Source: a virus
Taxonomy: Duplodnaviria > Caudoviricetes
Virus record (IMG/VR): IMGVR_UViG_3300046837_000247
Location: 1 to 53,651 of that record
DNA: 53,651 nt
Strand: one strand, 5' to 3'
This document shows, in pieces, positions 7,493 to 43,277 of this stretch. The notes under the pieces are model-generated. The model searched no databases, had not been told where the DNA came from, and worked only from the letters and a program-made list of their open reading frames with translations. Numbering within the stretch: position 1 is the stretch's first letter; the number at the start of each line of letters is the position of its first letter. Position numbers and translations under genes: made by a program.

Positions 7493-7686
7493 GCGACCAC
7501 CTAGACCAACTGCGCCAGCTGGCCAAAGAGCCGCCCGTAACGCACGGGCTGCCCGACCATCTGCGCAAGCTGCACAGACGGGTCATGGAGCACACGCGGC
7601 AGGAACGCGCCAGACCACAGGCAACCGATGATGAAGGCCGGCGCTGGGGACCAGCGGGCGGTACACGCAAGCACAGGAGCGGATAA
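7489..7686 (+). CDS. Hypothetical protein
   Basis: GTGA and TAATG coupling. Confidence 0.5.
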   Translation: MSDHLDQLRQLAKEPPVTHGLPDHLRKLHRRVMEHTRQERARPQATDDEGRRWGPAGGTRKHRSG

Positions 7687-8330
7687 TGTCAGGCACGAAA
7701 GACAACGCAGAGCGGCTGCTGGCGCTCCTAAACGGCCCGCCGTCGGTTAGTGGCCTTGGGAACCTCAGGCAGGCAGAAAACGAAGGCTCGGCCGCACGCA
7801 GCAACGCCGACTGGCTGGGCGTGCCCATCCTCGACGAGGCGATGGTGGCAACGGAAAAAGGCACCACGAGCGCGATCCCGGTGCAGATCGGTGACGTCTT
7901 CTCCAAGATCCTGCTCCCGTTCGGGAAAACGTCCGGCAAAAAAGTGGAAAAGGCGTACTGCGCCCTCTACGCCGGCAAAAAAGACGGCGCGCTGCTCGCG
8001 CAGTCTAAAGAAGCCAACCTCGTGGAAACGGCGAAAAAAGAAACCACGCTGCCGTTCACGCTGGAAAGCGCGGTCACGATCACCAGCGCGATGGCGCCCA
8101 ACGGCTACATCTACGCCCAGTTCGGCTCCGAAACAGAAACCATGCCCACGGGCATCGGCTGGACGCTCTCGGCGGAAGCCCAGGCGTCGTGGGCGGCCGT
8201 GTCGGCTGCCTCGGTGATGGGCCTTGGCGGCAAAGCAAGCAAAGCCCTGAAAGGCAAAGCCGACGCGAAACTAGGCGAATCGGAAGCCTTCGCGGCGGTC
8301 GCGAACGTCATCTGCTTCATCCTGCAATAG
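7686..8330 (+). CDS. Probable virion structural (decoration/minor capsid-like) protein
   Basis: Beta-rich AIPVQIGDV...ALY...ALLAQS; hand count 15 AAA vs 2 AAG and 13 GAA vs 2 GAG. Confidence 0.6.
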   Translation: MSGTKDNAERLLALLNGPPSVSGLGNLRQAENEGSAARSNADWLGVPILDEAMVATEKGTTSAIPVQIGDVFSKILLPFGKTSGKKVEKAYCALYAGKKDGALLAQSKEANLVETAKKETTLPFTLESAVTITSAMAPNGYIYAQFGSETETMPTGIGWTLSAEAQASWAAVSAASVMGLGGKASKALKGKADAKLGESEAFAAVANVICFILQ

Positions 8331-20330: not shown

Positions 20331-20355
20331 GCAACCGAGACAAGGAGCCTGACCG

Positions 20356-22109: not shown

Positions 22110-22149
22110 GTGTCCCACCCTAACACCACGGCGGGGAGGGAGTAACCCC

Positions 22150-25071: not shown

Positions 25072-28000
25072 GTGACCGACGTCGTAGGCGCAGCAGAGAT
25101 CATCATCACGCCGGTCACGGCTGGCTTCGAGGAGGCGCTGCACGCACAGACGGCCACGCCGCTGGGCAACTTCGGCAAGCGGGCGGAGAAGGCCGGCGAG
25201 GAGGGCGGGCAGAAGCTGAGCAAGGGCTTCAGCTCGGGCACCAGCGGCATAGGCCGCACGCTCAACAACCTGGGCGTGCCGTTCGCCAACTTCGGCGGGC
25301 ACCTTACGACCACGGCCGACAAGATGGCCAAGGTCGATCAGAGCGGTTCGCACCTGGGCGCCACCATGGCCACGCTGGGAGGTCACGTCCTGCTGGGCGT
25401 GGGCGTGGCCATGGCCGGGGTAGCGGCGGCGGGCGTCGACCTGGCGGTGAAGCAGGAAAAGGTCACGGCGGCCATAGCCAACAGCGAGGGCATCAGCGTC
25501 AAGGCCGCCAACAGCATCAGCAACGCCTTCCTGGCCACCGCCGGCACCACCATCTTCAGCGGCAAAGCTATCGGTGAAGCCTACGCCAAAGTCGCCGGCG
25601 AGCTAGGCGCTGTGGTGGGGCACGCCCTGAGTGCCGGCGAAGCCACCAAGGTCATGGCGGCATCCATGGACCTAGCCGAGGCGTCGGGCATCGAGCTAGG
25701 CGCCGCCACCGACTCGCTGGGCAAGATCATGCTGGCGTACCACCTGAACGCCGGGCAGGCGGCAGGCGCCTCAGACGTGCTGTTCAACGCCTCCAAACAG
25801 ACCGGCACGTCGGTGGAGCAGTTGGCCAGCCAGTTGCAGCGTATGCGGGGCCGCCTGGGCGACCTGGCGCCCTCGCTGGCCGAATCGGGCGGGCTCATGG
25901 AGCTACTGGCCAAGCACGGCATCACCGGGCGTATGTCGCTCATGGCCCTGAACGGGGCCTTCAACACCCTGCTATCGGGCGGCACCAAGACGCAGGAAAT
26001 GATGAAACAGCTCGGCATTCACGTGTTTGACTCGAGCGGTAAGTTCGTCGGCCTGACCAGCGTCATCGCGCAACTGCAGCCGAAGCTAGTCGGCCTGAAC
26101 CAGCAGAGCCAACTGCAGGCCACGCGCGCGCTGTTCGGCGCCAGCGCCAATAAGCAACTCCTCGACATCATCCTGCAAGGCCCGCACGCCTACCAGGCCA
26201 GCACGGCAGCGGTGCAGAGGCACGGCGCCGCGGCCGACGCAGCCAAGAAGCAGTCGGAAACCCTTGGCGGGCAGATGAAAATACTGCGCGCCACGGTAGA
26301 AGATCTGGCAACCAAGATCGGGCAGGCGCTAATCCCGATCATCACCAAACTGGCCAAAGGCCTCAGCGAAGGCATCGACTGGCTGAAAAAGCACGAAGCC
26401 GCCGCCAAGGTCCTAGCCGGCGTCATAGCCACGGTGCTGGGCGCGGCCATCGGCTCGTTTGTGGCCGTCAAGGTGGCAGCGTTCATCGGTGGCACGAAAA
26501 ACATGATCGCGGCGATGGTGTCTATGGGCAAGAAAATGCTCGAGACGGCCGGGATCATGGGCACAGCCGACGCAGCCATTGCCGCCGACGCTGAGGCCAC
26601 AGCGGTGTCCGTCGATGCCTCGCTGATGGGCACCGGCATAGGTGTGGCCGTGGTGGCGCTGGGCATAGCCGCCTACGAGCTTTCCCAGCATTGGGAAGCG
26701 GCTATGAAAGGCATGGAAGAAGCCACCGTTGCAGCCGCCAATTTCATCATCGGGATCCTGAACAGCCTGATCGACGTCTTCAACGAAACCATCGGCGAAA
26801 TCACTGGCGACATCGGCAAAATCCAGGAAATGAGCGTCGAAGCCAGTGGCTTCACTCACAAGCAGGAAGAAGAAAACGAAGCCGAAGGCACACCCCGCGA
26901 AGTCGGTGGCAGCAAGTCGGCCACGCAGGGCGGCATCATGGCGTTCTTCGAATCCAAGGGCCTGACCCGTGCGCAGGCCGCCGGCATCGTCGGGAACATC
27001 GAACAGGAGTCGTCCACCAACCCCAACGCGCCCGGCGGAGGGCTGTTCCAGGGCATCGGCTCGCGCTCGGGGTTGGGGTCGGGCAGTGTCAAACAGCAGA
27101 TCGAAGCAGCGTGGAAGGAACTGTCGTCCAACCCCGAATACGGGCTAGCGCAACTCAAGAAAGCCAAGTCGCCCGAGGAAGCGGCGCGCATCTTCTCGCA
27201 GCACTTCGAGAAACCGGGCCAGCCGGAAGTGCAGAACCGCGAAAAATACGCCCGCGAAGCCCTCAAGCAGCACCCCGCCGAAGCCAAGCACACGTCCGCG
27301 ATGGAACACCACAGCAAGGCCCTAGAAGGCGCCGGCCACCTACAGGAAGCCGCCGCCAAGACGCAGCACAAAGCGGCGACGGTGCACCACTCCGCGGCCA
27401 AGAAGGTCAGCGAGTCGCCCAAGGAAATCGTCAAGTGGGCCGAACAGATGGTCGGGCACTTCAAGGAGTCCACCGGCTCCAACCGCGGTCCGGAGCTGGA
27501 CAAGCTGCAGGGTGAATTCCACACGCGCGCCGCTGCGTGGTGCGCAGAGTTCGCTACCACGGCAGCCATGATGGGCGGCGCCAACAAAGCCGTGCGCACC
27601 GCCAGCGTGAAAACGATCCGCGAATGGGCCGAGGCGGGCTCGCACGGCTATGAAAAAGGCGTCAAGAAGACGCCCAAGGCCGGCGACCTGATGATGTTCG
27701 GTGACTCGCACGTGGGCTTCGTCCAGTCCGTGCACGGCAGCACCGTGCAGACGATCGAGGGCAACGTGGGCGGCAGCGGCGGCGTGGCGCACGAGACACG
27801 CAAAGTAGGCGAAGGCGACTTCGCCCGGCCGGCGTACAAGAAGCTCGAAACGGGCGCCGTCGAACTGCAGCGGGTGAGCAAGCAGTTCGAAACGGCGCAG
27901 AAGGAGTGGGTAGCCAAAGTCTCGGCCGACACCAAACAGGGCCAGGACCAGCTCAACAAGATCACGGGCGCGATCCAGTCGGGCGGCGTAAAGGAACTCA

Positions 28001-28734
28001 CGGCCGTGGTGGGCGGCAAGCACGACACGTGGCTGAACAAACTCGTGGCCAAGCTGCACTCGGACCACACCGCCGGCCTAGACAAGATGGTCACCAAACT
28101 GGTCGACGCCCACAAGAAAGCACTGGAAGCGCTCAAGGTGGCGCTGGTCAAGGCCGCCGAAAAAGCCACGGCGGAAAAACTCTCCTACGAAGACAAGATC
28201 CACACCGACCAGGCCGAGCGCCAGGCCACGCTGATCGCCAACCAGGCCAAGACGACGCTCGACAGGGCCGCCATGGTGGGCAAGCAGGGCGCAGACCTCT
28301 TCGCCGCGCAGGCGCAGGTCGCGCTAGACGAATGGAAGGAACGCGATGACGTGGCGATCAGCCTGGCCAAACAGGCGGTGGACGAAACGGAAGGCCACGG
28401 CGAACGGGCAGAGGCCGAAGCCAAGCAGCGCCTCGTCAATACAGAGAACACGGCCAAAGTGAACGAGACCAGCCAGCAGGCGGCCGTCGAGATGGCCAAC
28501 AACGCGGCGCAGGAAGCCAAGAGCGCCGAAGAGCGGGACAAGACGGAAAAAGAACGGCTCAAGGTGGAAGAAGAACGGCTGGCGCAGGAAAAGAAGACCA
28601 CGGCCGAAGGCGCCACGCAGGCGCCGGTCAACTTCACCATCACGATCCCAGACGGGACCAAAATGAGTGCTGGCGAACTGCTGCAGGAGATCAGCTGGCA
28701 CATCCACACGGGCACGCTGCCGGTGGCCAAATGA
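25072..28734 (+). CDS. Tape measure protein with phage tail lysozyme-like and CHAP domains
   Basis: Long Ala/Gly-rich helical protein; AAGIVGNIEQES...GLFQ...FEKPG; AWCAEF...PKAGD...HVGFV...TIEGN. Confidence 0.92.
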   Translation: MTDVVGAAEIIITPVTAGFEEALHAQTATPLGNFGKRAEKAGEEGGQKLSKGFSSGTSGIGRTLNNLGVPFANFGGHLTTTADKMAKVDQSGSHLGATMATLGGHVLLGVGVAMAGVAAAGVDLAVKQEKVTAAIANSEGISVKAANSISNAFLATAGTTIFSGKAIGEAYAKVAGELGAVVGHALSAGEATKVMAASMDLAEASGIELGAATDSLGKIMLAYHLNAGQAAGASDVLFNASKQTGTSVEQLASQLQRMRGRLGDLAPSLAESGGLMELLAKHGITGRMSLMALNGAFNTLLSGGTKTQEMMKQLGIHVFDSSGKFVGLTSVIAQLQPKLVGLNQQSQLQATRALFGASANKQLLDIILQGPHAYQASTAAVQRHGAAADAAKKQSETLGGQMKILRATVEDLATKIGQALIPIITKLAKGLSEGIDWLKKHEAAAKVLAGVIATVLGAAIGSFVAVKVAAFIGGTKNMIAAMVSMGKKMLETAGIMGTADAAIAADAEATAVSVDASLMGTGIGVAVVALGIAAYELSQHWEAAMKGMEEATVAAANFIIGILNSLIDVFNETIGEITGDIGKIQEMSVEASGFTHKQEEENEAEGTPREVGGSKSATQGGIMAFFESKGLTRAQAAGIVGNIEQESSTNPNAPGGGLFQGIGSRSGLGSGSVKQQIEAAWKELSSNPEYGLAQLKKAKSPEEAARIFSQHFEKPGQPEVQNREKYAREALKQHPAEAKHTSAMEHHSKALEGAGHLQEAAAKTQHKAATVHHSAAKKVSESPKEIVKWAEQMVGHFKESTGSNRGPELDKLQGEFHTRAAAWCAEFATTAAMMGGANKAVRTASVKTIREWAEAGSHGYEKGVKKTPKAGDLMMFGDSHVGFVQSVHGSTVQTIEGNVGGSGGVAHETRKVGEGDFARPAYKKLETGAVELQRVSKQFETAQKEWVAKVSADTKQGQDQLNKITGAIQSGGVKELTAVVGGKHDTWLNKLVAKLHSDHTAGLDKMVTKLVDAHKKALEALKVALVKAAEKATAEKLSYEDKIHTDQAERQATLIANQAKTTLDRAAMVGKQGADLFAAQAQVALDEWKERDDVAISLAKQAVDETEGHGERAEAEAKQRLVNTENTAKVNETSQQAAVEMANNAAQEAKSAEERDKTEKERLKVEEERLAQEKKTTAEGATQAPVNFTITIPDGTKMSAGELLQEISWHIHTGTLPVAK

Positions 28735-29651
28735 GCTTCCCCGCCCCCTCCGTCCAGCTACCCAACCTCACGCCGTGGCAACTGGCCTACGGCGACTTCT
28801 CCTTCGGCGGCGTCGTGCAGGGCAGCACCTTCCAGCTACAGGAAATCGCGGAAGGCCTCGACCCGCCCGACTACGTGACCGGCGATGTGCAGCGCGCGTT
28901 GGACCAGGGCGAATACCTGGGCCTAGACCTCTCTCCCGGCCGCAACATCGTGGTCAAGCAGGTGATTGCGGCCACCACGGCCAAAGCCCTAGACGTGGCG
29001 CGGCAGGAACTAGGCGCTGTGCTGGGGCCTCGAGGCAACGTAGAGGAACCGCTGTTCCTACAACTGCCCAACGGCCTCTTTGCCAGCATGGCCCGGCCAC
29101 GGAAACACAAGTGCCCGGTGGGCACGGAGACCGTCTTCGGTTACGCCACGATCGCCACTACGGCCTTCCATGCCACGGACCCGCGCTGGTACGCGGTGCC
29201 GGTGAACAGCAGCACGGTGGGCCTGCCGGAAGTGGCCGGCGGCATCAAATTCCCCATCAAATTCCCGATCGTCTTTGCGGCGGCCGGCGGCGGCAACATC
29301 GTGACCGTCGAAAACCTGGGCGGCTTCGAGACGCGCCCGCTGCTCGTGGTGACCGGCCCGTGCACCAACCCGCGCATCACCTGCCGCTCGCAGCCAGGTG
29401 CCCCCGGCATAGGCTTCGAACTGGTGCTCAACGCGAGCGACACGCTGACCATAGACCTCGACTGGCAGAGTGCCGTGCTGCGCACAGCCGGCACCGTGCA
29501 GGGCAGCAGCAGGCGCAGCTCGGAGCAGCCGGGGAATGACTGGTTCAACTGCCCGCCGGGCAACACGGAGCTGGCGTTCACGAGTGAAGACAAAGTCAAA
29601 GAAGCGGGCACCCTAACCGTGCAGTGGGCGTCGGCGTACATGGGCCTATGA
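28731..29651 (+). CDS. Distal tail / minor tail protein
   Basis: Follows the tape measure gene; FHATDPRWY, KFPIKFP, N.G...TRP...GP.TNP. Confidence 0.8.
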   Translation: MSFPAPSVQLPNLTPWQLAYGDFSFGGVVQGSTFQLQEIAEGLDPPDYVTGDVQRALDQGEYLGLDLSPGRNIVVKQVIAATTAKALDVARQELGAVLGPRGNVEEPLFLQLPNGLFASMARPRKHKCPVGTETVFGYATIATTAFHATDPRWYAVPVNSSTVGLPEVAGGIKFPIKFPIVFAAAGGGNIVTVENLGGFETRPLLVVTGPCTNPRITCRSQPGAPGIGFELVLNASDTLTIDLDWQSAVLRTAGTVQGSSRRSSEQPGNDWFNCPPGNTELAFTSEDKVKEAGTLTVQWASAYMGL

Positions 29652-29671
29652 GGCCCCGGAAGGAGTAGGTC

Positions 29672-30142
29672 ATGGCCGCTGGTGGATCAACAGTGTTTGA
29701 GAAGGAAATCGCCGAATACCTGTTCAATGGCAAAGCGATCAAAGCGATCGCGGCGGAAAAACTCTATCTTGGCTTCTGCGAAAAAGAATCCAAGAAAAAC
29801 GCCGACTTTGCCACGATGAAAGAACTGAAGGGTACGACGGGGTACAAAGAACGCATCGAAGTCAAAACAGTTCTGGCTGTTACCGAACAGGAAGGTGTGC
29901 TTGGGGAAGCAGGCAAAGGCGCCCTGTTGCAGAACGCGGCAATCGTCAAAGTCTTCATCGCGGTCCCCGGCGTTGTCACGAACCCGAAAGTGAAATTTGC
30001 GTATATCGCCAGAGCAGCGGCTGCCACGTTTGAAACAGGCGAACTGTTGCAGATGATCCCGGTGGCGCCGGAAGTGACGATCCTCGAAACGACGACGGAA
30101 TTCAGCTTCGCTGCCAAAGAACTCACGTTTGAAGTGCTCTGA
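29672..30142 (+). CDS. Virion structural protein, K/E-rich
   Basis: LYLGF...EL.GT.GY.R; tail region; near-exclusive GAA/AAA usage. Confidence 0.65.
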   Translation: MAAGGSTVFEKEIAEYLFNGKAIKAIAAEKLYLGFCEKESKKNADFATMKELKGTTGYKERIEVKTVLAVTEQEGVLGEAGKGALLQNAAIVKVFIAVPGVVTNPKVKFAYIARAAAATFETGELLQMIPVAPEVTILETTTEFSFAAKELTFEVL

Positions 30143-30357
30143 TGGCTACCCCGATGGCAGAACTCGCTGCGGCCTGCGACGAATTGCAGAACCTACAGCC
30201 GACGAACAACAAGCTGGGGCAGGCTATTCGGTTCATCGAACTCGGGGAGCAGCTCGGCTTGTTCGATGCGGTCACGCATGAAGTGAACCAGCAGGCGACT
30301 GCCAAACTCGCAAAAAGCGTACAGGGGTTGGTAGCTACCCTTACCGCTAACCCGTAA
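30142..30357 (+). CDS. Hypothetical protein
   Basis: TGATG coupling. Confidence 0.6.
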   Translation: MATPMAELAAACDELQNLQPTNNKLGQAIRFIELGEQLGLFDAVTHEVNQQATAKLAKSVQGLVATLTANP

Positions 30358-30363
30358 CCCGTC

Positions 30364-31464
30364 ATGCCGCGCCTCGTCGGCAACGAAACCGCCGAAGCAA
30401 CACTTGTCATAGAGAGTAAAGAACGCCCGTTTGCCTGTAAGTTCAAAGCGGCGGCGACGGGCACAATCGAAGAACTCAAGGTCACCGTCAAATGCGAAAC
30501 GGCGGAAACCGACTGTGACATAGGGATCTACAGCGAAGGGGCCGGTGTCCCCGGGGTCCTGAAAGCCCATAAAAAAACCGGCAAAATCAAAATCGGGGAA
30601 GAACTCACCCTAACGGCCACAGGGTTCTCGGTTGCTGTGACGGCCGGCACGACGTACTGGCTTGCAGTCGTCCCGACGCTCGGGACGTTCAAACTCAAGT
30701 ATAAAAAAGAAGCCGGCAAAGAAGATATCAAGAAAGGCACCACCGGCACGAAAGCCCCCGAACTGGGGGAAGCGACGACATGGGAAGTATTCGCCGAATC
30801 GACGTTGATGACGATTTGGGCGCTCGGCACGGAAACGGGCGGCCAACTCGAAGGCAAAGCCAAAGGGACGATACTCCTTGGCGGGACGTCGAAAGGTGTC
30901 GCCGCCAACGTCGTCAAAGGCATAGCGACTGGGCCGCTGCTGCTGGGGGGCACGGGCAAAGGCGTCGCAGCGAACGTCGTCAAAGGCGTAGGTACTGGTT
31001 CCCTGCTGCTGACGGGCAAAGCGAAAGGCGCGACAGCCGAAGCCCTGAAAGGCAAAGCGGCCGGCGCGATCCTGCTCACGGGCACCGCGAAAGGCACCAT
31101 CTCGGGGGGGGCGCCGGTCGTCGGCAAAGCCACCGGCACTCTGACGCTCACGGGTTCGGCGAAAGGTACTGCGTCCAACCGCGTCGTCGGCAAAGCCACG
31201 GGCGCGCTGACGCTGACAGGCACCGCCAAAGGCACCCTGAGAGCCGTTGTCACAGGCAAAGCCTCGGGCGCCCTGCTGCTCGCCGGCTCGAGCAAAGGCA
31301 TCGCCTCCAACCGCGTCGGCGGCAAAGCCACGGGTGCCCTGCTCCTCGTCGGCCATGCGCGCACACATGAAACCGGCCCGAAGCTGCTGCTGTTCGCCAA
31401 CGGCGCATCGCAGACAGTCACCCCAGCGGGCGGTGGCAGCTCGCTGGCACTCGCCTACCCCTAA
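30364..31464 (+). CDS. Minor tail / fibre protein: beta domain plus about 8 tandem repeats of about 22 aa
   Basis: IGIYSE..G.PG...VTAGTTYWLAV; repeats GKATGALxLTGxAKG. Confidence 0.7.
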   Translation: MPRLVGNETAEATLVIESKERPFACKFKAAATGTIEELKVTVKCETAETDCDIGIYSEGAGVPGVLKAHKKTGKIKIGEELTLTATGFSVAVTAGTTYWLAVVPTLGTFKLKYKKEAGKEDIKKGTTGTKAPELGEATTWEVFAESTLMTIWALGTETGGQLEGKAKGTILLGGTSKGVAANVVKGIATGPLLLGGTGKGVAANVVKGVGTGSLLLTGKAKGATAEALKGKAAGAILLTGTAKGTISGGAPVVGKATGTLTLTGSAKGTASNRVVGKATGALTLTGTAKGTLRAVVTGKASGALLLAGSSKGIASNRVGGKATGALLLVGHARTHETGPKLLLFANGASQTVTPAGGGSSLALAYP

Positions 31465-31484
31465 GTGATTGGAGAACAAACGCC

Positions 31485-31886
31485 ATGGCCGACTACAAAG
31501 TGCTGAACGATGGGCTGGACTGGCTGCTGACAAACTCGCTCGCCGGCACGCCCGTGAAATACGCGCTGTCGACGTTCACGGCAGACGAAATCGTCGCGAC
31601 CGACAAACTCATCGCAGCCAAAATGCCGGGCGAGATCACAGGCACCCTCTACGAACAGCAGGCTGAAGCGGAAGCAAACGAGCCGGTGGCCACGCAGATC
31701 GTCTCCGACCAGCACGAATGGAAAACGGGGGCTGCGGTGAACTGGCCAGCAGCCGTGAAGTCGTGTGGCCTGATTGCAGGCGGCGTGCTGATCGCGGTGC
31801 GCAACCTGCAGACGAACGGTGTGGCGCGGGACATGTCGGGCGCCAACACGACCGAGAAGTTCACGTTCACGTTGGACCTGAGCTGA
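31485..31886 (+). CDS. Virion structural protein
   Basis: GEITGTLY.QQ...WKTGAAVNW, similar to the N-terminus of the next gene. Confidence 0.6.
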   Translation: MADYKVLNDGLDWLLTNSLAGTPVKYALSTFTADEIVATDKLIAAKMPGEITGTLYEQQAEAEANEPVATQIVSDQHEWKTGAAVNWPAAVKSCGLIAGGVLIAVRNLQTNGVARDMSGANTTEKFTFTLDLS

Positions 31887-31889
31887 CCG

Positions 31890-33116
31890 ATGGAGGCTCT
31901 CCTTTTCGACGGGGGTGCGCGCTTGCTGCTCAAGGGTGGCCTGGTCGGCGGCGTTGAATTCGCGCTGTCGTTGAAGCCCGTAGAGGGAGAAGGGGCTCAC
32001 GAACGGGCCGATACCATCGCGGACATTGCCGAGGTATCCGGCACTGGCTACACGCGCCAGGCCTCGGAAGCCCCCCTGTCGTTCGGTGACGTATTCACAT
32101 TTCCCCAGGTTGAATGGAATACCGGCAGCGCGACAAACTGGGAAGACGCTGGGTCTGTGGTGCTGGTCAAGGGAATCACGGCGATCGCCGCGTTCGGGAT
32201 CAAGCGCGGCTCGGAATACCCTGAACGGCACCTGCCGGCGCACTCGGTGTATCGCTACACGGCGCGGCTACGGCTGGGGCCGGAAGTGCCGCCGCCCGAA
32301 GAAGGCAAAGAAGGGGAACCACAGCTGACATGGATTCCCTACGGGCCTGGCGCGGACAACTCGGAAGACGAAGTGGTAACGGTAGTCTACCCGGCATCGA
32401 AACCGGGGCGTCCGGTGGTAGTGATGGTGCATGGTGGGAGCTGGTCGTCGGGCAATGCGAAACCGGGCGAAGCGCCGGCCAACGATTCGGCCAACAAAAT
32501 GCTCCAGAGCACCTACAACTTCTGCGTCATCGACATCAACTACCCGCTCATCAAAGGGCCGACGGGCACGAATCCGGGGGCGCCGAAGCAAACCGCCGCG
32601 TTGCCGCGTGCGTTTCAGTGGGTCGTCGATCATTGCGCGGACTACAACGGCGACCCGGCGAAGGTCTGCGCGGTCGGCACGTCGGCGGGTGGCCACGTTG
32701 CGATGTGGGGTGCGATCACCGCGAACAAAGCGCATTCCGGACGAGTGAAGGGTGTGGGCACGCTGAGCGGGCCGGTGGCGCTCGTGACGCTTGAACAGAT
32801 CGTGCTCGGCGAACTACCGGGCGGGCCATCGTTGTCGGCGGCGGGCGAGGTTGGGCACGCCTACCCGGCGCGGACTTTCAGCGAAGCCTACGACCCGGCG
32901 TCGCACGTCGAGTCCACGTGCCCGAACATGCTCTGCTTTCACTCGCACGAGAAACTGGTGCCCTTCGCCTTGGCTGAAACGCTGCGGGCGGCGATGGTCG
33001 CAGCGGGGTATGGGTCGCGTATAACCATCGTGCAGAAGGAAGGGACTGGGCACGGCGCGGCGCTAATGGGCGCCTGCAAGGTCGAACTCGCGGCGTTTGT
33101 CGAAGCGGTGACGTGA
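31890..33116 (+). CDS. Structural domain fused to an alpha/beta hydrolase (HSL-like esterase)
   Basis: VHGGSW, INY, GTSAGGH nucleophile elbow, EKLVP, GHG. Confidence 0.85.
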   Translation: MEALLFDGGARLLLKGGLVGGVEFALSLKPVEGEGAHERADTIADIAEVSGTGYTRQASEAPLSFGDVFTFPQVEWNTGSATNWEDAGSVVLVKGITAIAAFGIKRGSEYPERHLPAHSVYRYTARLRLGPEVPPPEEGKEGEPQLTWIPYGPGADNSEDEVVTVVYPASKPGRPVVVMVHGGSWSSGNAKPGEAPANDSANKMLQSTYNFCVIDINYPLIKGPTGTNPGAPKQTAALPRAFQWVVDHCADYNGDPAKVCAVGTSAGGHVAMWGAITANKAHSGRVKGVGTLSGPVALVTLEQIVLGELPGGPSLSAAGEVGHAYPARTFSEAYDPASHVESTCPNMLCFHSHEKLVPFALAETLRAAMVAAGYGSRITIVQKEGTGHGAALMGACKVELAAFVEAVT

Positions 33117-33919
33117 TGGACCTGCTCGCGGGCAATGCCACTCCGAAAACGAAAGCACAGTCGATCAGCTCGACGAAACTACAGGTGTTCCAGTTCACCG
33201 CGCTTGAATCGGGCACGATCGAAGAAATACAGATCAGATCATCGGCTGCGTCTGGCTCGTCTACGAGTCAATGGGTCGCGGTCTACGCCGACACGGGCGC
33301 TAACGCTCCGGTCACGGGTGCCGCGCCGCTGGGCAAGGGCAAACACGATACCAAACCCGGCAACAGCGAATGGTGGAAAGTGACGGGCCTGTCCATAGCG
33401 GTCCTCACTGGGACGAAGTATTGGGTCGCGGTGAATCCGCAGGTTGCCGCCACGAGCGTCACGATACGCGAGGAAGCCGGCCTCACTTTCCAGAATAAAA
33501 AACCGGCGACGTTCGCCGAACCGGGCGCGGTCGAAGAATGGGGAACGGTAGCCGTCTCGGGGCCGGTGGACTTTCAGGCGCTCGGCACGAAAGCCGCCAT
33601 CGTCGCGGTGTCGTGCCTGGGCAATGAGGAAGAGCAGGTGGAGGACACCGCTACCCTTGTCATCCTGCCGGAAGCGCTCGGCCTAGACGAATACCAGCAC
33701 GAGGACGCGGGCACGGCCGTCATCGCCACCACCGCGGACGGCTCTGATACCTACGTCGTGGCTGGCGTTATCGAATACGGCGACGATGGGGTTGTTGTGA
33801 TCTACGCGGCAGCTCTGGGAACCGACGTGCACCATGTGGGCGAAGCTGGCCCGCTACTGCCGCTGTTCGTCGGCGGCGGTAGCTCTGTTGTCACTCTATC
33901 TGGAGGCGCCGTGCAATGA
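33113..33919 (+). CDS. Minor tail protein, paralog of the 30364 N-domain
   Basis: FQFTA..SGTIEEI...AVYAD...GTKYWVAV. Confidence 0.65.
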   Translation: MMDLLAGNATPKTKAQSISSTKLQVFQFTALESGTIEEIQIRSSAASGSSTSQWVAVYADTGANAPVTGAAPLGKGKHDTKPGNSEWWKVTGLSIAVLTGTKYWVAVNPQVAATSVTIREEAGLTFQNKKPATFAEPGAVEEWGTVAVSGPVDFQALGTKAAIVAVSCLGNEEEQVEDTATLVILPEALGLDEYQHEDAGTAVIATTADGSDTYVVAGVIEYGDDGVVVIYAAALGTDVHHVGEAGPLLPLFVGGGSSVVTLSGGAVQ

Positions 33920-34260
33920 TTTCATCATGGCCAGTTGAAAACGAAACACGGCTGCGGTTCTTCTTCGCCGTCCGCGAGCTAACCGACGATGAGTTCGAGC
34001 GCTTCATGGAGGGCAACGGGCTTCCCAGCGGCGTGGGCCGCGACCCAGGCGGCACAGTCAACTGCGTGTACCAGCCGCCGCGCGGCCAAGAGCACACGGT
34101 CGTGGCGGTCAGGGATGGCGTGGGCGAATACCACCTCGTCGTGGTGCCCACGGCCTCGCAGGCCGGTATGTGGCGGTGGCGCGGGCAGGGCCTAAACGCC
34201 GAAGGAGAACCCCAGGTCTCGACACAAGACTTCCTCTTCAACGCTACGAGGTCCTTCTGA
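33916..34260 (+). CDS. BppU-like baseplate/minor tail protein
   Basis: DP..V......P...RDGVGEYH......AGMWRWR..G. Confidence 0.6.
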   Translation: MISSWPVENETRLRFFFAVRELTDDEFERFMEGNGLPSGVGRDPGGTVNCVYQPPRGQEHTVVAVRDGVGEYHLVVVPTASQAGMWRWRGQGLNAEGEPQVSTQDFLFNATRSF

Positions 34261-36608
34261 TGGCCACCTACGCCGTACAAACCTGGACGGACGAAGTGAC
34301 GTGGGCCAACGCGGCCGACATGCAGCACATGGAGGCCGGCATAGCCCTGATCAACACGCAGGGCCTCCCGGCCGGCGGCACGGCGGGCCAGGTGCTGGCC
34401 AAGTCCAGCGGCACCGACTACGCCGTCGCGTGGAAAGCGGTACTCGGCTCCGAAGTGGTCGAAACGGCCAACATCAAGAACCTGAACGTGACCACCGGCA
34501 AGATCGCCGTGGGTGCCGTGACCGAAGAAAAGCTCACCATCGGCGCCGAAGGCAAGCTGATCCCCACCGCTGGCTTCAAAACCGGCTACATCCTGACGGC
34601 CGGGGCGACCGCGGCCGAATGGAAAGCCAACACGGGCGGCACGGGCATCACCGCAGCCGAAGCCGAAGTCATCGCCTCCAACATAGCTCAGCGCGAAAAC
34701 GTGAGCGCTCGAGTGGTGCTAACGGCCAAAGTGACGCTGAAAGGCATCCCGGCCAGCGCCGAAACAGACGGGGTGACGCTCCTCGAAGGCGACATCGTCC
34801 TGGCCTCCAAACAGACCGGCACCGAAGCGGAAAACGGCCTATGGGAAGTCAAGAAAGGGACCACGGCCTGGGCACGTCCGGCCTCCTACGCCACGGGCGC
34901 TCTGAAGCACGGCATCTTCGTCCCGATCCTCCAGGGCACGACGCACGGTGGCTCGACGTGGGTGCAGACGAATACGACGTTCATCAAAGTGGACACCGAA
35001 GCGTCGTCGTGGGCGGAAAACAGCGCCGGCACAGGCGTGATCGGCAACCCCCAGGAATTCAACAAAGAAGAAGCGAAAACGGGCGTGTCGGGCGCCACCA
35101 ATCTCGACCTCAGTAAAGCCAGCGTGTTCCGCATCGAACTGACCGGCGCCGCCGTGTTCACGCTGACCAACCTGCCCACCACCTACCCGATGGAAATCAC
35201 CCTGCTGATCAAGCAGGACGCCACGGGCGGGCGCACGTGGAGCTTCGCCAACGCTGCCCCGGCGCTGGAATGGATCGGCCCCGAACCAACGTTCGAAACG
35301 GCAGCCGGGTCACGTGCGGTGATGCAGCTGGCGGTGCTCAGCAAAGGCACGGAAATACTCGGCTGGGCCAAGGCTGGCGGCAGCGTGCCGGCCATCAAAG
35401 CACCGCCGCCGACGGGGATGATCGTGGGCGTCAACTGGATGCAGGACGAATCGGAATCCACGATGATCGGCACGCAGGCTACGTGCTACACCGCTGGTGT
35501 CCGCTCCGAACGCATCAACCTGCGCCGCGACAGCCTCAGCAAAGCTCAGGCGGCGGGCTTCACCAACAACTGTTGCACCATCGGCGACTGGACAAGCGCG
35601 GAATCAAACCTGAGCCCCGCGCAGATGTTGGAAGCCCCGAACAAAGCGGCGTGGCTCACCAAAGCCGCGGCTGAATTCCTGGAAGGTGCCGAAAAAGGCG
35701 AACTGATCTTCGAGGTTATCAACGAGACCTACGAAAAGAAAGGCTACGGCACGGGCGAAGGGGCTGGGACCGAAGCAGAAAAATACGAAAAATGCGCCAA
35801 AAACAACGCCAAACTGTTCATCGCCCTGGTCGAAGAACTGAAGGCCAAATACAGCGGGAAAGGCTGGTGGCCTAACGTCAAATTCCTGATCACCACGTCG
35901 GGCAGGACGATCGCCGAATGGCTGACGCCCACACTCGCCGAACTAAACACGGCGGAAAAGAAAGCGTTCGTCAGCGGGTGGGCCTGCCACCCCTACGGTG
36001 GCAGCAACACGACCGGCAAACTTGAAGGCGAAGGCGGGAGCTGCAAGTGGAGCCGGATGGAACAGTACCGTACCGAACTCGTGGCGGTGGGCTTCCCCAA
36101 CACCGACATCTGGGCGACGGAGTGGGGCATCGAATGCAACGGGCCGTGGCTCACGCTGGACAAAGAAAAAGCCGGGGCGACGGCGCTACGGAAAGTCGGC
36201 GAAGAAGGGACGTGCGAAACCGAATTCGCGGCGCTCATCCTGGAACGCCTGGAACGCCTGAAGGTGCTGACAGCCAAGGGCTCGTGGTACTACAGCGCCC
36301 ACGACAACACTGGCAAAGCTGCTGCGATCACGGCCGTCAAAGTGAACAAGGGCGCCTGGAAATCCGAAACGTTCGCGATCGGCGACGCGGTCCAGTCGGT
36401 CAAAATCAATGACGCGGAATGGTATGTGTGCATCAAAGCGGGCTCGGCTGTTGAACCCAGCAAAACCGGGTGGGAAACGTGGTGGGAACCCATCACCCAG
36501 GATCGCTGGGGCCTGCTGAAGCCCGAAGCGACCGCGACCGCGTACATAGGGAAACGCTCGCACGACAAAGCACGCACGGCGCTGGCGACCGTGGCGACGT
36601 TCAAATAA
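34260..36608 (+). CDS. Tail fibre/spike with clan GH-A-like glycoside hydrolase domain
   Basis: Fibre motifs GGTAGQVLAK..TDY, DGVTL.EGD.VL...Q...ENGLW, QDATGGRT; GH motifs FEVINE, HPY, IWATEWG, WGLL. Confidence 0.8.
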   Translation: MATYAVQTWTDEVTWANAADMQHMEAGIALINTQGLPAGGTAGQVLAKSSGTDYAVAWKAVLGSEVVETANIKNLNVTTGKIAVGAVTEEKLTIGAEGKLIPTAGFKTGYILTAGATAAEWKANTGGTGITAAEAEVIASNIAQRENVSARVVLTAKVTLKGIPASAETDGVTLLEGDIVLASKQTGTEAENGLWEVKKGTTAWARPASYATGALKHGIFVPILQGTTHGGSTWVQTNTTFIKVDTEASSWAENSAGTGVIGNPQEFNKEEAKTGVSGATNLDLSKASVFRIELTGAAVFTLTNLPTTYPMEITLLIKQDATGGRTWSFANAAPALEWIGPEPTFETAAGSRAVMQLAVLSKGTEILGWAKAGGSVPAIKAPPPTGMIVGVNWMQDESESTMIGTQATCYTAGVRSERINLRRDSLSKAQAAGFTNNCCTIGDWTSAESNLSPAQMLEAPNKAAWLTKAAAEFLEGAEKGELIFEVINETYEKKGYGTGEGAGTEAEKYEKCAKNNAKLFIALVEELKAKYSGKGWWPNVKFLITTSGRTIAEWLTPTLAELNTAEKKAFVSGWACHPYGGSNTTGKLEGEGGSCKWSRMEQYRTELVAVGFPNTDIWATEWGIECNGPWLTLDKEKAGATALRKVGEEGTCETEFAALILERLERLKVLTAKGSWYYSAHDNTGKAAAITAVKVNKGAWKSETFAIGDAVQSVKINDAEWYVCIKAGSAVEPSKTGWETWWEPITQDRWGLLKPEATATAYIGKRSHDKARTALATVATFK

Positions 36609-36618
36609 GGGAGGCAGC

Positions 36619-38612: not shown

Positions 38613-38624
38613 AATGGAGACACC

Positions 38625-39524
38625 ATGACGCTAGCCATACCGTGGGCGCTGGATGGCCCCTCAACAGACGCACAGGTGGCCCGCCTAGCCATGGGCTCGC
38701 TAATCAGCGCAGCGGGTGGCGTAGTCACGGCGGGAGCCATGGAAGTGAAACAGAAGGGCACGCCGGACATGCACGTGCTCATCGCGGGTGGCACGGTGGC
38801 AGAAGGCGGTGCGTGGGTGCCGGGCACGGTCACGACCACCCAAGGCCCGTTCTTCGCCTACAACAACGCGAACGTTGAACTAGCCATCGTGGCCGCGGGC
38901 GCCACCAACCCGCGAGTGGACACGATCATCGTCCGCGTCTACGACGACGCCACCGACAGCACGGGCAAATCGGAATCGAAATTCGAATCCCTCAAAGGTG
39001 CCGAAGAACCGGGCTGTACGCTGGAAAACCTGAAAGGCGTGGCGGCCGTGCCCAAATCCAGCCTCGTGCTGGGCTACGTGTTGGTCGAAGCAAAAGTGAC
39101 GAGCATCGTCACGGCCAAGATTCTGAACGTGGCGCGGCCCAGCGGAACAGGCGCTGGAGCATGGACTGCCATGGAATCCTTTGGGGCCAAATCAGAAGCT
39201 CTTAGTGGTGGTGTGACGCCCGGCGCGCGTATAGAGGGAGCGCGAATATTTCTAAGAGGAGTTATCGCCCCCCAAGTTGGGCAAACCCTCAAAAAGAACG
39301 ATGTTCTTTGCACCTTGCCAACGGGCCTACGGCCCCTAGAGGGCACTCAACAGCCCGCGGTATGTCGCGAAGGCGGGGGCGAAGGCGCCTCCTACTTGGC
39401 CCCAAGTGCAATTGTCATAGAAACTAACGGTAAAATCAGCTACGCAGGCAACCTAACCATCACACGTTCAGTCCTACCCGTGGGAACCATCTCGCTGGAT
39501 GCCATGAGCTTCAGGCTGTCGTAG
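38625..39524 (+). CDS. Minor tail protein with a lower-GC C-terminal tip
   Basis: TPDM.V....G.A.V.G...NPRVDTIIVRVYD; tip RIFLRG...TLPTGLRP. Confidence 0.75.
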   Translation: MTLAIPWALDGPSTDAQVARLAMGSLISAAGGVVTAGAMEVKQKGTPDMHVLIAGGTVAEGGAWVPGTVTTTQGPFFAYNNANVELAIVAAGATNPRVDTIIVRVYDDATDSTGKSESKFESLKGAEEPGCTLENLKGVAAVPKSSLVLGYVLVEAKVTSIVTAKILNVARPSGTGAGAWTAMESFGAKSEALSGGVTPGARIEGARIFLRGVIAPQVGQTLKKNDVLCTLPTGLRPLEGTQQPAVCREGGGEGASYLAPSAIVIETNGKISYAGNLTITRSVLPVGTISLDAMSFRLS

Positions 39525-41470: not shown

Positions 41471-41967
41471 GCGCAACCGCACTACAGCACGCTGAATGGG
41501 CGCACAATGCGGCCGACCACCTCGCAGGGCAGCTCGAGCCCTACGTCTTGGGTGGAGGCCACGGTGTGGCCGCTGTCGCGGGCTACCTGCCGCCGACACG
41601 TGGCATCGAACCGGCACGCAACCCCGTGGCCGGCTTTGACTGCTCGGGGTGGGTCAGTTCGATCCTGTGGCACGCTGGTCTGCTCGGGCACGCCGAGGCA
41701 ATCGCCACGCAGGGCTTCGAGGCCTGGGGGCTGCCCGGCATAGGCGAGCATGTAACCGTTTGGGTCCACGACGACCCGACCCCCAACGAAGGACTGCACC
41801 ACTGCTTCGCGCACCTCTACGTGGCCGGACGCCCGCACGTCTGGACGGCCGCTACGCACACCGGCACGATCTGCGGGTGGCAAGACCAGTGGGGCGATTG
41901 GATCACGGCGGGATACACGCCGCGGCGCCCCGACCCGGCAAGGTTCACAGGGAGGCAGTTCGCATGA
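41467..41967 (+). CDS. NlpC/P60-like cell-wall peptidase
   Basis: PYVLGGGH...FDCSGWVS..L..AG.L...WG.PG.G..VTV...H. Confidence 0.8.
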   Translation: MSATALQHAEWAHNAADHLAGQLEPYVLGGGHGVAAVAGYLPPTRGIEPARNPVAGFDCSGWVSSILWHAGLLGHAEAIATQGFEAWGLPGIGEHVTVWVHDDPTPNEGLHHCFAHLYVAGRPHVWTAATHTGTICGWQDQWGDWITAGYTPRRPDPARFTGRQFA

Positions 41968-43277
41968 GCACCGTAGACCTCAGCACCGAACAGTGGGCGC
42001 GCGTGATTGCCGCTGTGACCGGCGGGCCGGACCTAAGCCCGACCGTCGCCACCGATGCGGCAATCCTTGCAGTCCTGCAGTCGACACAGCCGCCACCTCC
42101 ACCGCCACCACCCCCGCCGGCCTCCCAGCTGACGTTCGGGCTGGACGGCAAAGGCGGCGCCGTAGTCTCCTCGGCACCTGCCGGCACCGTGACCATCGAG
42201 CCTGCGTGGAGCAGGACGACGAAACCCGAAGCGGGCGACACGATCTACTCGCAGGCGGCCGAATGGGTGCCGCCAACGGCAACGATCCTGCCGAAGCCCG
42301 GCTACCCAGTCATTGGCGGCCGGGCGCGCGACGCGGCCGGCAAAGTGATCGGCTCGCCGACGTGGGCGCCACGGCTGCTAGTCGGCGAACCGGCGCCCCC
42401 GCCGCCGCCACCTCCGCCGCCACCTCCGCCGCCACCCTCTTCGCTGGTAGTGGCTGCGGACACCTACCAGCTAGCGCCGACATCCGAAAAGAACGGGATC
42501 AAGGCCGGCCCCGATATCGCCGCCTGCGTGACGGCTGTGCGGATGTGCGGCACCTCGCGGGGCTCGACGGCGGGGCTACCCAACTCAGCCCTGACGGCCT
42601 GGCAGAAACAGGGCTGCGGTGTCATCATCACCGACTTCAACGGCGGCATGACGGTCGCGAGCATCCCGGTGGGCACCTGGACGGGGCGGTTTGTGGAACG
42701 TCAGCTGGCGGGCCCGCTCGCGATCGAGGAGGGCAACGAGCTGTACGAACCGCCGTGGGGTCCGAATCAGACAGCACAGGCCGCGATCGACGCCTACTTC
42801 GCCCGTCTGGAAGCGACGCGTGTGGCGATGGACAAAGCCTACGGCCGTGGCAACTATGCACCGCTGCTGGCCTGCTGCCAGGGCAGCGAGAAAATGGGCT
42901 GGACGAACGCGCTCGCCGCGAAAGGGCTCAAAGACGTGGTTGACGGCGCGGTCGTCCACTGCTACCCCAAAGAATCCCAGACCGAAACGACCGGCGCCAG
43001 CCTGAGCTTCGAGCGGGCAGGGGAAGTCCACAACGCGACGGGCCTGCCGATCTGGATCACGGAGTTCTGTCCGCCCAGCCCCGGCAAGTTCACGCTCGCC
43101 AACCAAGCCAGCGATACAGCGGCGTTCGTCGAAAAATGCCGCGCCACGAGCTGGATCCACGGCTGCTCCTACTTCGCCTACGAGGAACGCAAAGAGGGCA
43201 CCTACGGCTTCGGGCTGGTCGACGAAAGCTGGAAACACAAGCCGGTCTACGCGGCCCTACAGGCTGCGGCGAAATAG
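41964..43277 (+). CDS. Clan GH-A-like glycoside hydrolase with poly-Pro linkers
   Basis: IEEGNE, VHCY, PIWITEF, FGLVD...KP.Y; two Pro runs. Confidence 0.8.
   Translation: MSTVDLSTEQWARVIAAVTGGPDLSPTVATDAAILAVLQSTQPPPPPPPPPPASQLTFGLDGKGGAVVSSAPAGTVTIEPAWSRTTKPEAGDTIYSQAAEWVPPTATILPKPGYPVIGGRARDAAGKVIGSPTWAPRLLVGEPAPPPPPPPPPPPPPPSSLVVAADTYQLAPTSEKNGIKAGPDIAACVTAVRMCGTSRGSTAGLPNSALTAWQKQGCGVIITDFNGGMTVASIPVGTWTGRFVERQLAGPLAIEEGNELYEPPWGPNQTAQAAIDAYFARLEATRVAMDKAYGRGNYAPLLACCQGSEKMGWTNALAAKGLKDVVDGAVVHCYPKESQTETTGASLSFERAGEVHNATGLPIWITEFCPPSPGKFTLANQASDTAAFVEKCRATSWIHGCSYFAYEERKEGTYGFGLVDESWKHKPVYAALQAAAK

Follow-up and report, generated by a model that had tools for sequence, protein, structure and literature searches.

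Site-by-site conservation of glutamate and lysine codon choice in a siphovirus clade

Introduction

The closest described parallel to the codon pattern reported here is selection for translational accuracy (Akashi-type selection), in which preferred codons occupy critical sites and non-preferred codons tolerant ones, and for which conserved and variable regions or domains have been compared (PMC7374057). The pattern was recognized in a tail-fibre-like gene at positions 34260-36608 of virus record IMGVR_UViG_3300046837_000247, the whole of which (53,651 bases, ~67% GC) is called the window, and it extends to other virion genes of the same phage and its relatives. In these genes, GAG and AAG (together RAG) behave as the preferred codons at critical sites, and GAA and AAA (together RAA) as the non-preferred codons at tolerant sites. 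Unlike Akashi-type selection, however, the effect touches only the Glu and Lys boxes, with odds ratios of ~10 between conservation classes and 7-79 site by site, and tolerant sites are pushed to the opposite codon instead of merely being relaxed. What is new is that GAA/GAG and AAA/AAG identity is conserved site by site over eight independent phage lineages; a limited search of the open-access literature found no description of such a partition in phages.

A second parallel is provided by conserved rare codons, whose rarity is kept at homologous positions beyond the need for the amino acid (2017, PMC5438181). The system described there concerns clusters of any rare codon, whereas here single GAA and AAA codons encode the majority of Glu and Lys in entire genes and distinguish the residues that were added. 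With respect to tRNA supply, the charging-limited model of Hill, To and Wilke (2026, PMC12799730) predicts intermediate codon bias in very highly expressed phage genes, and the phage GAA:GAG ratio near 1:1 does match the 1:1 ratio of the corresponding tRNA genes in a candidate host. That model was nevertheless made for T7 and E. coli, has no site-specificity and would cover Gln too.

Two further systems involve tRNAs with uridine at position 34 (U34). The toxin MazF-mt9 cuts tRNA-Lys(UUU), stalling ribosomes at AAA and not at AAG (PMC6620280, PMC7033543), so that in Actinobacteria the U34 isoacceptor can set the two Lys codons apart in function; this is, however, a proteome-wide host stress toxin, to which heavy use of AAA would raise the exposure of a phage, and no comparable system was found in the window, where no search aimed at one was made. 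The RAAP-2 reassignment of ACA (bioRxiv 10.64898/2026.05.03.722492) shares with the present case a high-GC Actinomycetota background, the re-expansion of a rare A-ending codon and an unusual U34 tRNA. Unlike RAAP-2, where ACA aligns with Asp, here GAA and AAA align best with Glu and Lys, and ACA with Thr.

Codon counts in the window

A recount of gene 34260-36608 gave 63 GAA and 4 GAG, exactly the numbers that the earlier note on this DNA had counted by hand, and placed the four GAG codons where it had, at 34332 (HMEAG), 35712 and 35724 (FEVINE) and 36120 (ATEWG). Lys is encoded by 39 AAA and 17 AAG, and Gln by 1 CAA and 17 CAG; with the remaining codons at 25 NNA to 185 NNG and 34 NNT to 358 NNC, the other amino acids do keep G or C at third positions, as had been remarked. 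The bias is a property of the reading frame, AAG occurring 46 times in frame 2 of the same gene.

Per-gene counts were taken from 54 open reading frames (ORFs) chosen by their G+C content at third codon positions (GC3), some of those of low GC3 being possibly misframed. Over all 54, the totals are 515 GAA to 550 GAG, 285 AAA to 379 AAG and 71 CAA to 475 CAG. The early genes, the terminase and the protease-like gene are rich in GAG (GAA/GAG, for example, 1/17, 0/9 and 1/20), and strong bias to GAA and AAA is found in 7686-8330, in 18981-21606 and in the tail genes within 28731-39524 (18/1 in 29672-30142; 20/1 in 30364-31464). RAA codons are nearly absent from early genes and plentiful in tail genes, and the RAA-rich genes show very high GC3 at every other codon. 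The tape measure gene is divided, being GAA-rich for Glu (65/33) yet AAG-rich for Lys (33/64).

The motifs cited in the earlier note as instances of one rule were as it described them: GAG encodes all three Glu of IEEGNE and that of WITEF in the second glycoside hydrolase (GH; 41649-43277), the Glu of QES, FEKP and TIEGN in the tape measure (the Glu preceding QES being GAA), and those of NGET (19377), YGES (20770) and EKLVP in the esterase. The major capsid gene is likewise mostly GAG (11 GAA/49 GAG).

Conservation of the third base at homologous sites

The pattern is shared by a clade of at least eight lineages, namely the window, L001, L005, L007, L008, L009, L031 and L044; the seven others are ~67-71% identical in nucleotide sequence to the window and to one another over their alignable parts, L005, L007 and L009, on contigs of 46-56 kb, being covered over ~21 kb each. 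One member of each near-duplicate pair (L002/L003, L004/L005, L006/L007) was dropped in the later analyses.

Sites at which both aligned sequences encode Glu (or both Lys) were compared using Mantel-Haenszel odds ratios stratified by gene. Between the window and L001, L005, L007, L008, L009, L031 and L044, respectively, these were 22.7, 6.8, 19.4, 13.7, 7.4, 6.5 and 9.8 for Glu, and 27, 9.6, 4.6, 2.8, infinite (small n), 23 and 8.3 for Lys. The Glu table for the window and L001 holds 68 sites that are GAA in both and 115 that are GAG in both, with 13 and 20 in the mixed cells. Clade pairs excluding the window gave 7.7-79 for Glu and 2.8-100 for Lys. In the C- versus G-ending controls (GCC/GCG, ACC/ACG, CCC/CCG, GTC/GTG, CTC/CTG and GGC/GGG), values for Ala, Thr, Pro, Val and Leu were ~0.2-3, with Gly and Val reaching ~5 in single pairs; Asp GAT/GAC gave 0-2, the other NNA/NNG codons pooled 1.3-2.8 (once 12, with L031, from 12 concordant sites) and NNT/NNC 0.8-1.9. 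GAA and GAG are discriminated as strongly as Ser from Thr (10-19), Ile from Val (6-13) or Ala from Ser (7-21), and the Glu odds ratios are still 4.9-25 once sites conserved in outgroups are removed.

Some turnover is evident. The third base differs at 29% of RAA and 16% of RAG sites, which is about half-way to saturation, whereas four-fold and Asp sites are essentially saturated in the same alignments. Homologous positions thus retain their codon class more than the amino acid demands, and more than synonymous sites of other kinds do; purifying selection keeps each Glu and Lys site in its class while other synonymous sites have been randomised. The partition of the two boxes, which acts on codons and is both site-specific and clade-wide, requires selection in both directions. 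The proposal of the earlier note that GAA and AAA are not equivalent to GAG and AAG thus stands for this phage lineage, in the sense that the third base is kept site by site in eight independent lineages.

For pairs of phages outside the clade (L015-L021, L020-L022, L023-L026, L003-L035, L013-L014) the effect was absent or no greater than in controls. Genes on the + strand of metagenome-assembled genomes (MAGs) of Solirubrobacterales gave odds ratios of 9-48 for Glu and 2.6-9 for the control codons, but the counts were small and no conclusion was drawn, and the same test against a more distant MAG gave no Glu excess.

A number of simpler causes were considered and rejected. Avoidance of a DNA motif was ruled out by the frequency of AAG out of frame. 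Local nucleotide or Shine-Dalgarno-like context was ruled out because GAA and GAG have similar flanking bases; when +/-9 nt of context supplemented gene identity as a predictor, the area under the curve for Glu moved only from 0.727 to 0.746, and that for Lys from 0.714 to 0.717. Heterogeneity at the level of regions or domains was ruled out for Glu by comparison with the next neighbouring site, for which the odds ratio falls to 0.6-1.6 (for Lys, 0-1.9 on few sites). Recent recombination or gene conversion of patches was excluded by the four-fold sites beside concordant Glu and Lys codons, which are mostly at the background identity of ~0.40-0.48, those flanking AAA-AAA sites being higher (0.50-0.71). 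Selection for A in the DNA itself was rejected because, where relatives carry another residue at RAA sites, the third base is A at a frequency of 8% within the clade and of 4% among outgroups, as in controls. A general A or purine pressure was rejected because only Glu and Lys are raised and Asn, Thr, Gln and Ile are not, and slow transitions because Asp GAT/GAC is saturated. Phage tRNAs or RNA families were dismissed as a cause, there being none in the window.

Codon choice and conservation in outgroups

Window proteins were aligned by tblastn (E<=1e-8) and codon pairs were read, with matches for 18 of the 54 ORFs; the outgroups are phages and prophages that barely use GAA and AAA. With near-duplicate pairs included, outgroup residues are Glu at 18% for the 101 window GAA sites versus 43% for the 204 GAG sites (p=1.3e-10), and Lys at 9% for AAA versus 21% for AAG sites (p=9e-4). 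In the 10 genes with outgroup relatives, Glu kept in >=60% of outgroups is encoded by 7 GAA and 62 GAG, and Glu kept in <=20% by 67 and 63 (Fisher p=2.2e-9), an odds ratio of about 10 between the conservation classes; the same classes for Lys hold 2 AAA to 10 AAG and 49 to 61 (p=0.07). The two virion genes at 18981..21606 illustrate the rule, with 0 GAA to 9 GAG at conserved Glu and 32 to 6 at unconserved Glu, as does the capsid gene, where GAG sites are Glu in outgroups too and RAA sites are clade-specific. Across genes, the rule that conserved Glu is GAG is statistical but strong.

Host-preferred codons are therefore found at conserved sites, as in Akashi-type selection, host preference being that of the candidate hosts described below. 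The generality of such selection over amino acids is lacking: for 14 other amino acids, no link was found between A- or T-ending codons and conservation (p 0.05-0.91).

Added glutamate and lysine residues

In the virion proteins of the clade, RAA codons supply a surplus of Glu and Lys amounting to 4-8%, which is missing from outgroups, and, gene by gene, the Glu+Lys excess of the clade approximates its RAA content. In gene 18981-20330, Glu+Lys amounts to 12-14% and RAA to 6.6-9.3% in the clade (L009 is lower, at 9.1% and 3.1%), compared with 3-5.5% and 0-2.3% in outgroups; the excess tracks RAA in the tail and tape-measure genes as well. Over seven genes only Glu (+2.9 points) and Lys (+2.0 points) rise, and no residue is singly depleted to match.

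The two codon classes also differ in what surrounds them in evolution. At RAA sites, outgroups mostly carry Ala, Ser, Thr, Gly or Asp, and exchange between Glu and Lys is far freer than at RAG sites; at non-ancient RAG sites the outgroups retain the type of charge (Glu+Asp 33%, Lys+Arg 28%). Within the clade itself, RAA sites are kept almost as well as RAG sites (Glu conservation 44% at GAA and 52% at GAG). Further RAA codons are often found at i+/-2 from a given one. Ancestral, charge-constrained Glu and Lys, including catalytic Glu, are GAG and AAG, and the added, mostly surface residues are GAA and AAA.

It might be supposed that the extra residues arose as RAA in the stem of the clade, either from Asp and Asn codons by C-to-A change or under a past RAA-favouring host, and that their third base has not yet been randomised. 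RAA sites are indeed residues gained by the clade, a rare and constrained His would account for the missing CAA, and the turnover noted above shows a process under way. Taken as a whole, such a legacy is rather improbable, because Asp GAT/GAC, also a transition, has odds ratios of ~1 in the same alignments, four-fold sites are at chance identity (~0.40-0.45), and most source codons (GCG, ACG, CAG) would yield RAG. The age of the residue makes no difference either. Although 'ancient' Glu and Lys are seldom RAA (13 of 84 GAA, a fraction of 0.15, and 3 of 14 AAA), the RAA fraction of other Glu stays at 0.42-0.48 whether the residue is clade-wide, patchy or confined to the window, and there is therefore no decay with age. 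Finally, the pattern is seen in eight lineages despite their distance from one another.

The glycoside hydrolase-like domain of the tail-fibre-like protein

Fibre-type relatives are numerous for the first 400 residues. No Pfam family was found at E<=1 for the C-terminal domain (aa 394-782) or for its homologue P0081, and a PDB sequence search with the domain returned a chance match only; by these searches it belongs to no described GH family. At the nucleotide level, blastn of the gene against phages gave two short N-terminal matches only, and tblastn against the clade and outgroup loci none; no relatives were found among viral contigs or metagenome contigs, or by a word-based protein search. 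An exhaustive HMMER search listed one relative spanning the domain, P0081, which led to 36 unannotated proteins, and 35 of these were aligned (P0184, a half-length match, was excluded).

With the 36 sequences, AlphaFold2 (AF2) gave a model of alternating strands and helices with a mean predicted local distance difference test score (pLDDT) of 70.4 and a predicted template modelling score (pTM) of 0.74; from the single sequence it was unusable (pLDDT 38). Foldseek returned 199 PDB matches at E<=1e-3, and the top matches listed were to GH39, GH10, GH53, GH5, GH1, GH158, GH51 and PslG, with probabilities of 0.99-1.0 and template modelling (TM) scores of 0.3-0.5. On this model, the domain is predicted to fold as a clan GH-A (beta/alpha)8 barrel. 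Like members of that clan (GH39, GH10, GH53, GH5, GH1, PslG), it would have an invariant Asn-Glu after strand 4 and a Glu in strand 7; N488-E489 follow model strand 90-93, which is numbered strand 4 by its order in the model and not by superposition. It differs from described members in having no Pfam or PDB sequence match and structural matches at TM 0.3-0.5 only.

The only three GAG codons of the domain encode E485, E489 and E621, each invariant in 35/35 homologues, and therefore the statement that catalytic Glu use GAG holds, the catalytic roles being presumed; the model is likewise consistent with the assignment, made in the earlier note, of the NE and TE motifs to the acid/base and nucleophile of clan GH-A. 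The converse, that GAA is left to bulk surface residues, holds in part. E505 is invariant (35/35) and yet GAA, as are the conserved E665 (36252; 33/35) and E475 (35682; 30/35), and GAA is found in 6 columns of the domain that are Glu in >=60% of homologues; K508 (28/35) is encoded by AAA and the invariant K493 by AAG. The chance of 24/287430 (8.3e-5) that had been put on all three GH-motif positions being GAG is arithmetically right but post hoc; on the basis of the homologues, the chance that 3/3 GAG among the 40 Glu of aa 394-782 fall in the 4 invariant Glu columns is 4e-4. The claim that conserved fibre lysines are AAG also proved partly correct, K48 of VLAK being kept in 42/44 homologues but K81 of TGKI in 4/17 and K91 of EEKL in 6/17; over N-terminal sites with >=10 aligned homologues, mean conservation was 0.10 for 12 AAA and 0.28 for 9 AAG sites (p=0.03).

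Some observations on relatives of the protein may be added. P0001 (462 aa), compared with window 34260-35450, matches residues 1-397 exactly before losing the frame, as a frameshifted or mis-assembled copy of the gene in another record. Bacterial members of the GH-like domain family often carry it joined to beta-propellers or to repeats of the RCC1 or collagen type (P0169-P0178), and an RCC1-repeat protein is also encoded by this phage (44374-45471).

Decoding, tRNAs and candidate hosts

The earlier note had suggested that U34 tRNAs might deliver a different or modified residue at GAA and AAA, and had proposed a Codetta-style tabulation and an inspection of host tRNA-Glu(UUC). In the tabulation, which counted only residues of relatives encoded by G- or C-ending codons, the standard amino acid was the most enriched for each codon with enough sites. 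GAA aligns with Glu at 17% (2.7-fold), with Ala at 16% (not among the two most enriched) and with Asp at 12% (2.1-fold), and AAA most with Lys (3.6-fold); both profiles are weak and have no rival residue, and neither codon aligns with a consensus of another residue as a reassigned codon would. The remaining A-ending codons resemble their synonyms. The tabulation thus produced no alternative residue.

Five MAGs with prophage-borne relatives of the capsid gene served as candidate hosts. Their EF-Tu, EF-G and ribosomal-protein operons use ~86% GAG and 93% AAG (a few spurious antisense ORFs included), and in their housekeeping genes (EF-Tu, EF-G, SecY, ribosomal proteins) GAA sites align with Glu at 65-75% and GAG sites at 75-77%. 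One of them, MAG G003, has 46 tRNAs, among which Lys is served by CUU and UUU, Gln by CUG and UUG, and Glu by CUC and an atypical UUC, the Glu and Lys anticodons being single-copy. Neither tRNA-Glu nor tRNA-Lys was found in the five clade contigs searched, which hold only Met, Ser and UAA-anticodon tRNAs.

The atypical 97-nt tRNA of G003 (L103, G003:C1:112703-112798) is its sole UUC tRNA and, together with L123 and L124, forms a type of 97-99 nt with the loop CUUUCAA and a hairpin inside the D-loop, which is kept with compensatory changes in two other Solirubrobacterales MAGs; the D-stem and 5-nt variable loop of L103 are unlike those of the same genome's tRNA-Glu(CUC). The inspection of tRNA-Glu(UUC) did turn up an unusual molecule, but the GAA sites still align with Glu. 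A further peculiarity is a set of UAA-anticodon tRNAs of 73-75 nt without a long variable arm, found in G003 (L110), in G005 (L063) and on the contig of L009 (L134:622-696). They depart from normal class II tRNA-Leu. The copies in G003 and G005 resemble each other, while that of the phage has a different sequence and a Leu-like D-arm.

Altered decoding of RAA is attractive in that GAA and GAG act like a conservative pair of amino acids, GAA and AAA interchange comparatively freely, and the apparent Glu+Lys excess matches RAA content. A precedent exists in the Acidimicrobiales, a candidate-host order, where an altered U34 tRNA is described as turning ACA from Thr to Asp (bioRxiv 10.64898/2026.05.03.722492), and the tRNA(UUC) with the D-loop hairpin, which reads GAA in Solirubrobacterales, departs from the D-stem pattern of tRNA-Glu(CUC). 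The proposal of a different residue is not supported, however: GAA and AAA occupy invariant or near-invariant Glu and Lys columns (E505, K508), and the profiles are those of Glu and Lys with no alternative above ~2-fold. No single residue is depleted in the clade, the window and the searched clade contigs provide no tRNA for the purpose, and host GAA sites read much as GAG sites do. On the evidence of these sequences, both Glu codons and both Lys codons appear to be read normally, and it is highly improbable that host U34 tRNAs read RAA ambiguously or deliver a different or modified residue there.

The host might, alternatively, prefer GAA and AAA, perhaps through lacking tRNAs with C34 for Glu and Lys, as beta- and gamma-proteobacteria do in the case of Glu, such that RAA would reflect ordinary translational selection in late genes of high expression. 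GAA is reported to be optimal in beta- and gamma-proteobacteria at any GC content (PMC5066170), and RAA-rich genes combine these codons with very high GC3 elsewhere. This is nevertheless improbable. The prophage relatives lie in MAGs of Solirubrobacterales, Acidimicrobiales and other Actinomycetota, 'minor tail protein' families of actinophage style are matched, the capsid, portal and early genes use GAG, and conserved sites use GAG, opposite to what accuracy selection would give with GAA optimal. A distant capsid relative, L017 (IMG/VR, 50% GC), shows a different bias, limited to Glu (GAA 120/GAG 5, AAA 56/AAG 66, CAA 72/CAG 68), of the kind that a host lacking C34 tRNA-Glu should produce.

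A proposed explanation

The reading tentatively favoured here is that decoding is standard and that site-specific selection acts between codons of U34 and C34 tRNAs, the mechanism being a proposal. In split purine-ending boxes, A-ending codons would be the sole access to tRNA-Glu(UUC) and tRNA-Lys(UUU), isoacceptors that a GAG- and AAG-using host would leave idle; among Actinobacteria, Glu has GAG as its optimal codon (PMC5066170). Late, massively expressed virion proteins enriched in Glu and Lys would put an extra demand on RAA codons, whose use would share the load when charged tRNA is limiting, and positions where errors are costly, for charge or catalysis, would for the sake of fidelity retain RAG codons, which are optimal in the host and decoded by C34 tRNAs. 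Only split purine-ending boxes would be affected because four-codon boxes already spread their load over NNC and NNG. Supply fits this proposal, in that the genome-wide GAA:GAG ratio is near 1:1 and the CUC and UUC tRNA genes for Glu are 1:1 in G003.

Several points weigh against it. Gln has the same UUG/CUG tRNA layout in G003 and yet CAA is rare (71/475), which load sharing leaves without explanation, and the capsid gene, whose product is the most abundant of all, mainly uses GAG. Under load sharing alone, single sites could drift freely, and the site-specificity depends on an assumed difference in fidelity between RAA and RAG. No accuracy-type effect is seen for other amino acids, whose pooled mean conservation is 0.45 at A/T-ending and 0.46 at G/C-ending codons (p=0.33). 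The candidate hosts are limited to MAGs with prophage relatives of the capsid gene, and L044, which alone of the clade comes from a MAG, is on a contig of 41 kb that was possibly binned by chance. The choice of the 54 ORFs by GC3, with some possibly in the wrong frame, bears on the counts.

Slow decoding would be another way to use the same tRNAs: if GAA and AAA are slow in a GAG- and AAG-using host, their fixed positions could tune elongation for the co-translational folding or the assembly of beta-rich virion proteins, or gate late genes by U34 tRNAs. Homologues keep rare codons at fixed positions in the system of PMC5438181, RAA codons are rare in the candidate hosts, the almost RAA-free early genes are matched by RAA-filled tail genes, and recurrence at i+/-2 codons is as would be seen along one face of a beta-strand. 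Such an account is unlikely, given that 94% of one gene's Glu codons cannot all be pauses, that other rare codons are neither conserved nor enriched, and that RAA codons mark added residues and not recoded ancestral ones. In Streptomyces, TTA codons and bldA provide a precedent for gating by the availability of a tRNA. Between these accounts, the preferred one remains site-specific selection under standard decoding.

Genome organization and relatives

The window is a complete or near-complete 53.6-kb siphovirus with a candidate uncultured Actinomycetota host, and the convincing ORFs of the window all lie on the + strand (Table 1). Annotation also gives 'minor tail' proteins that match actinophage-style families, whereas a tRNA search and an Rfam scan of the whole window were both negative. 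In IMG/VR the capsid gene has 34 relatives (L001-L034), and there are 13 in genomes of uncultured Actinomycetota, the latter being Solirubrobacterales, Acidimicrobiales or Acidimicrobiaceae, with one 'Actinomycetes' and one Mycobacteriales MAG.

Table 1. Features of the window and of the tail-fibre-like gene, with codon counts or supporting matches.
Feature	Coordinates	Strand	Remarks
Terminase	6155-7492	+	PHROG/Pfam match
Gene of unknown function after terminase	7686..8330	+	13 GAA/2 GAG, 15 AAA/2 AAG; same bias in L001 and L005 orthologues
Portal	10189-13650	+	PHROG/Pfam match; Glu mixed, 42 GAA/53 GAG
Portal/protease-like protein	13672-15810	+	PHROG/Pfam match
Major capsid (major head) protein	17186..18937	+	11 GAA/49 GAG, 10 AAA/5 AAG
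Two virion genes after capsid gene, second major-tail-like	18981..21606	+	38 GAA/21 GAG, 32 AAA/12 AAG
Major-tail-like protein	20356-21606	+	PHROG/Pfam match
Head-tail adaptor	21946-23031	+	PHROG/Pfam match
Tape measure, 1220 aa, lysozyme and CHAP domains	25072..28734	+	65 GAA/33 GAG, 33 AAA/64 AAG
Tail genes (Dit-like, two unknowns, BD-FAE esterase, others)	28731..33919	+	Strongly RAA-biased
BD-FAE esterase	31890-33116	+	PHROG/Pfam match
Tail-fibre-like protein, 782 aa, fibre N-terminus and C-terminal GH-A-like domain	34260..36608	+	
E25 of HMEAG, fibre N-terminus	34332..34334	+	GAG; Glu in 4/8 aligned homologues
C-terminal domain, aa 394-782	35439..36605	+	Modelled (beta/alpha)8 barrel, no Pfam family
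FEVINE: E485 (GAG 35712) and N488-E489 (GAG 35724), presumed acid/base	35712..35726	+	Invariant, 35/35
E505, counter-example	35772..35774	+	GAA; invariant, 35/35
E621 of ATEWG, presumed nucleophile	36120..36122	+	GAG; invariant, 35/35; inside model strand 224-230
Minor-tail-like gene	38625..39524	+	14 GAA/2 GAG, 10 AAA/3 AAG
Lysozyme	40601-41470	+	PHROG/Pfam match
Second glycoside hydrolase, Glyco_hydro_cc	41649..43277	+	14 GAA/10 GAG; Glu of IEEGNE and WITEF all GAG
RCC1-repeat protein	44374-45471	+	PHROG/Pfam match
PD-(D/E)XK nuclease	47782-49185	+	PHROG/Pfam match

The N-terminus of the capsid protein (17186-17560, ~aa 1-125) is Glu-rich and variable in sequence, yet has ~30 GAG against 5 GAA; 'variable' is therefore not always GAA. 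Among the rare codons of the whole window, A-ending exceed T-ending for most amino acids (ATA 78/ATT 41, CTA 156/CTT 68, GCA 267/GCT 186; possibly in part from misframed ORFs), and AT skew is positive along its entire length. Near prophages, GAA-rich genes stand amid GAG-using MAG contigs, namely a PG_binding/NlpC-P60 gene at L037:18229-19839(-) with 23 GAA/10 GAG, an RCC1 protein at L037:2267-3553(+) with 11/5, and a 159-aa protein at L036:2862-3341(-) with 14/1; these may be phage-derived.

Implications

Synonymous sites are usually deemed near-neutral or tuned gene by gene, whereas here two codon boxes are partitioned per site and across a clade, as sharply as between similar amino acids, and in a way that marks an added layer of charged residues. 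Should the cause be a difference in isoacceptor supply or fidelity, these phages would be an unusually clean natural system in which to measure it, and the finding would be relevant when genes of high-GC phages are recoded for expression. If altered decoding were true, a new kind of sense-codon split would be at hand, and with ambiguous or modified reading of RAA the layer on the virion surface would be a codon-addressed class of residue. Either way, the third positions of GAR and AAR codons in such genomes are unfit as neutral markers.

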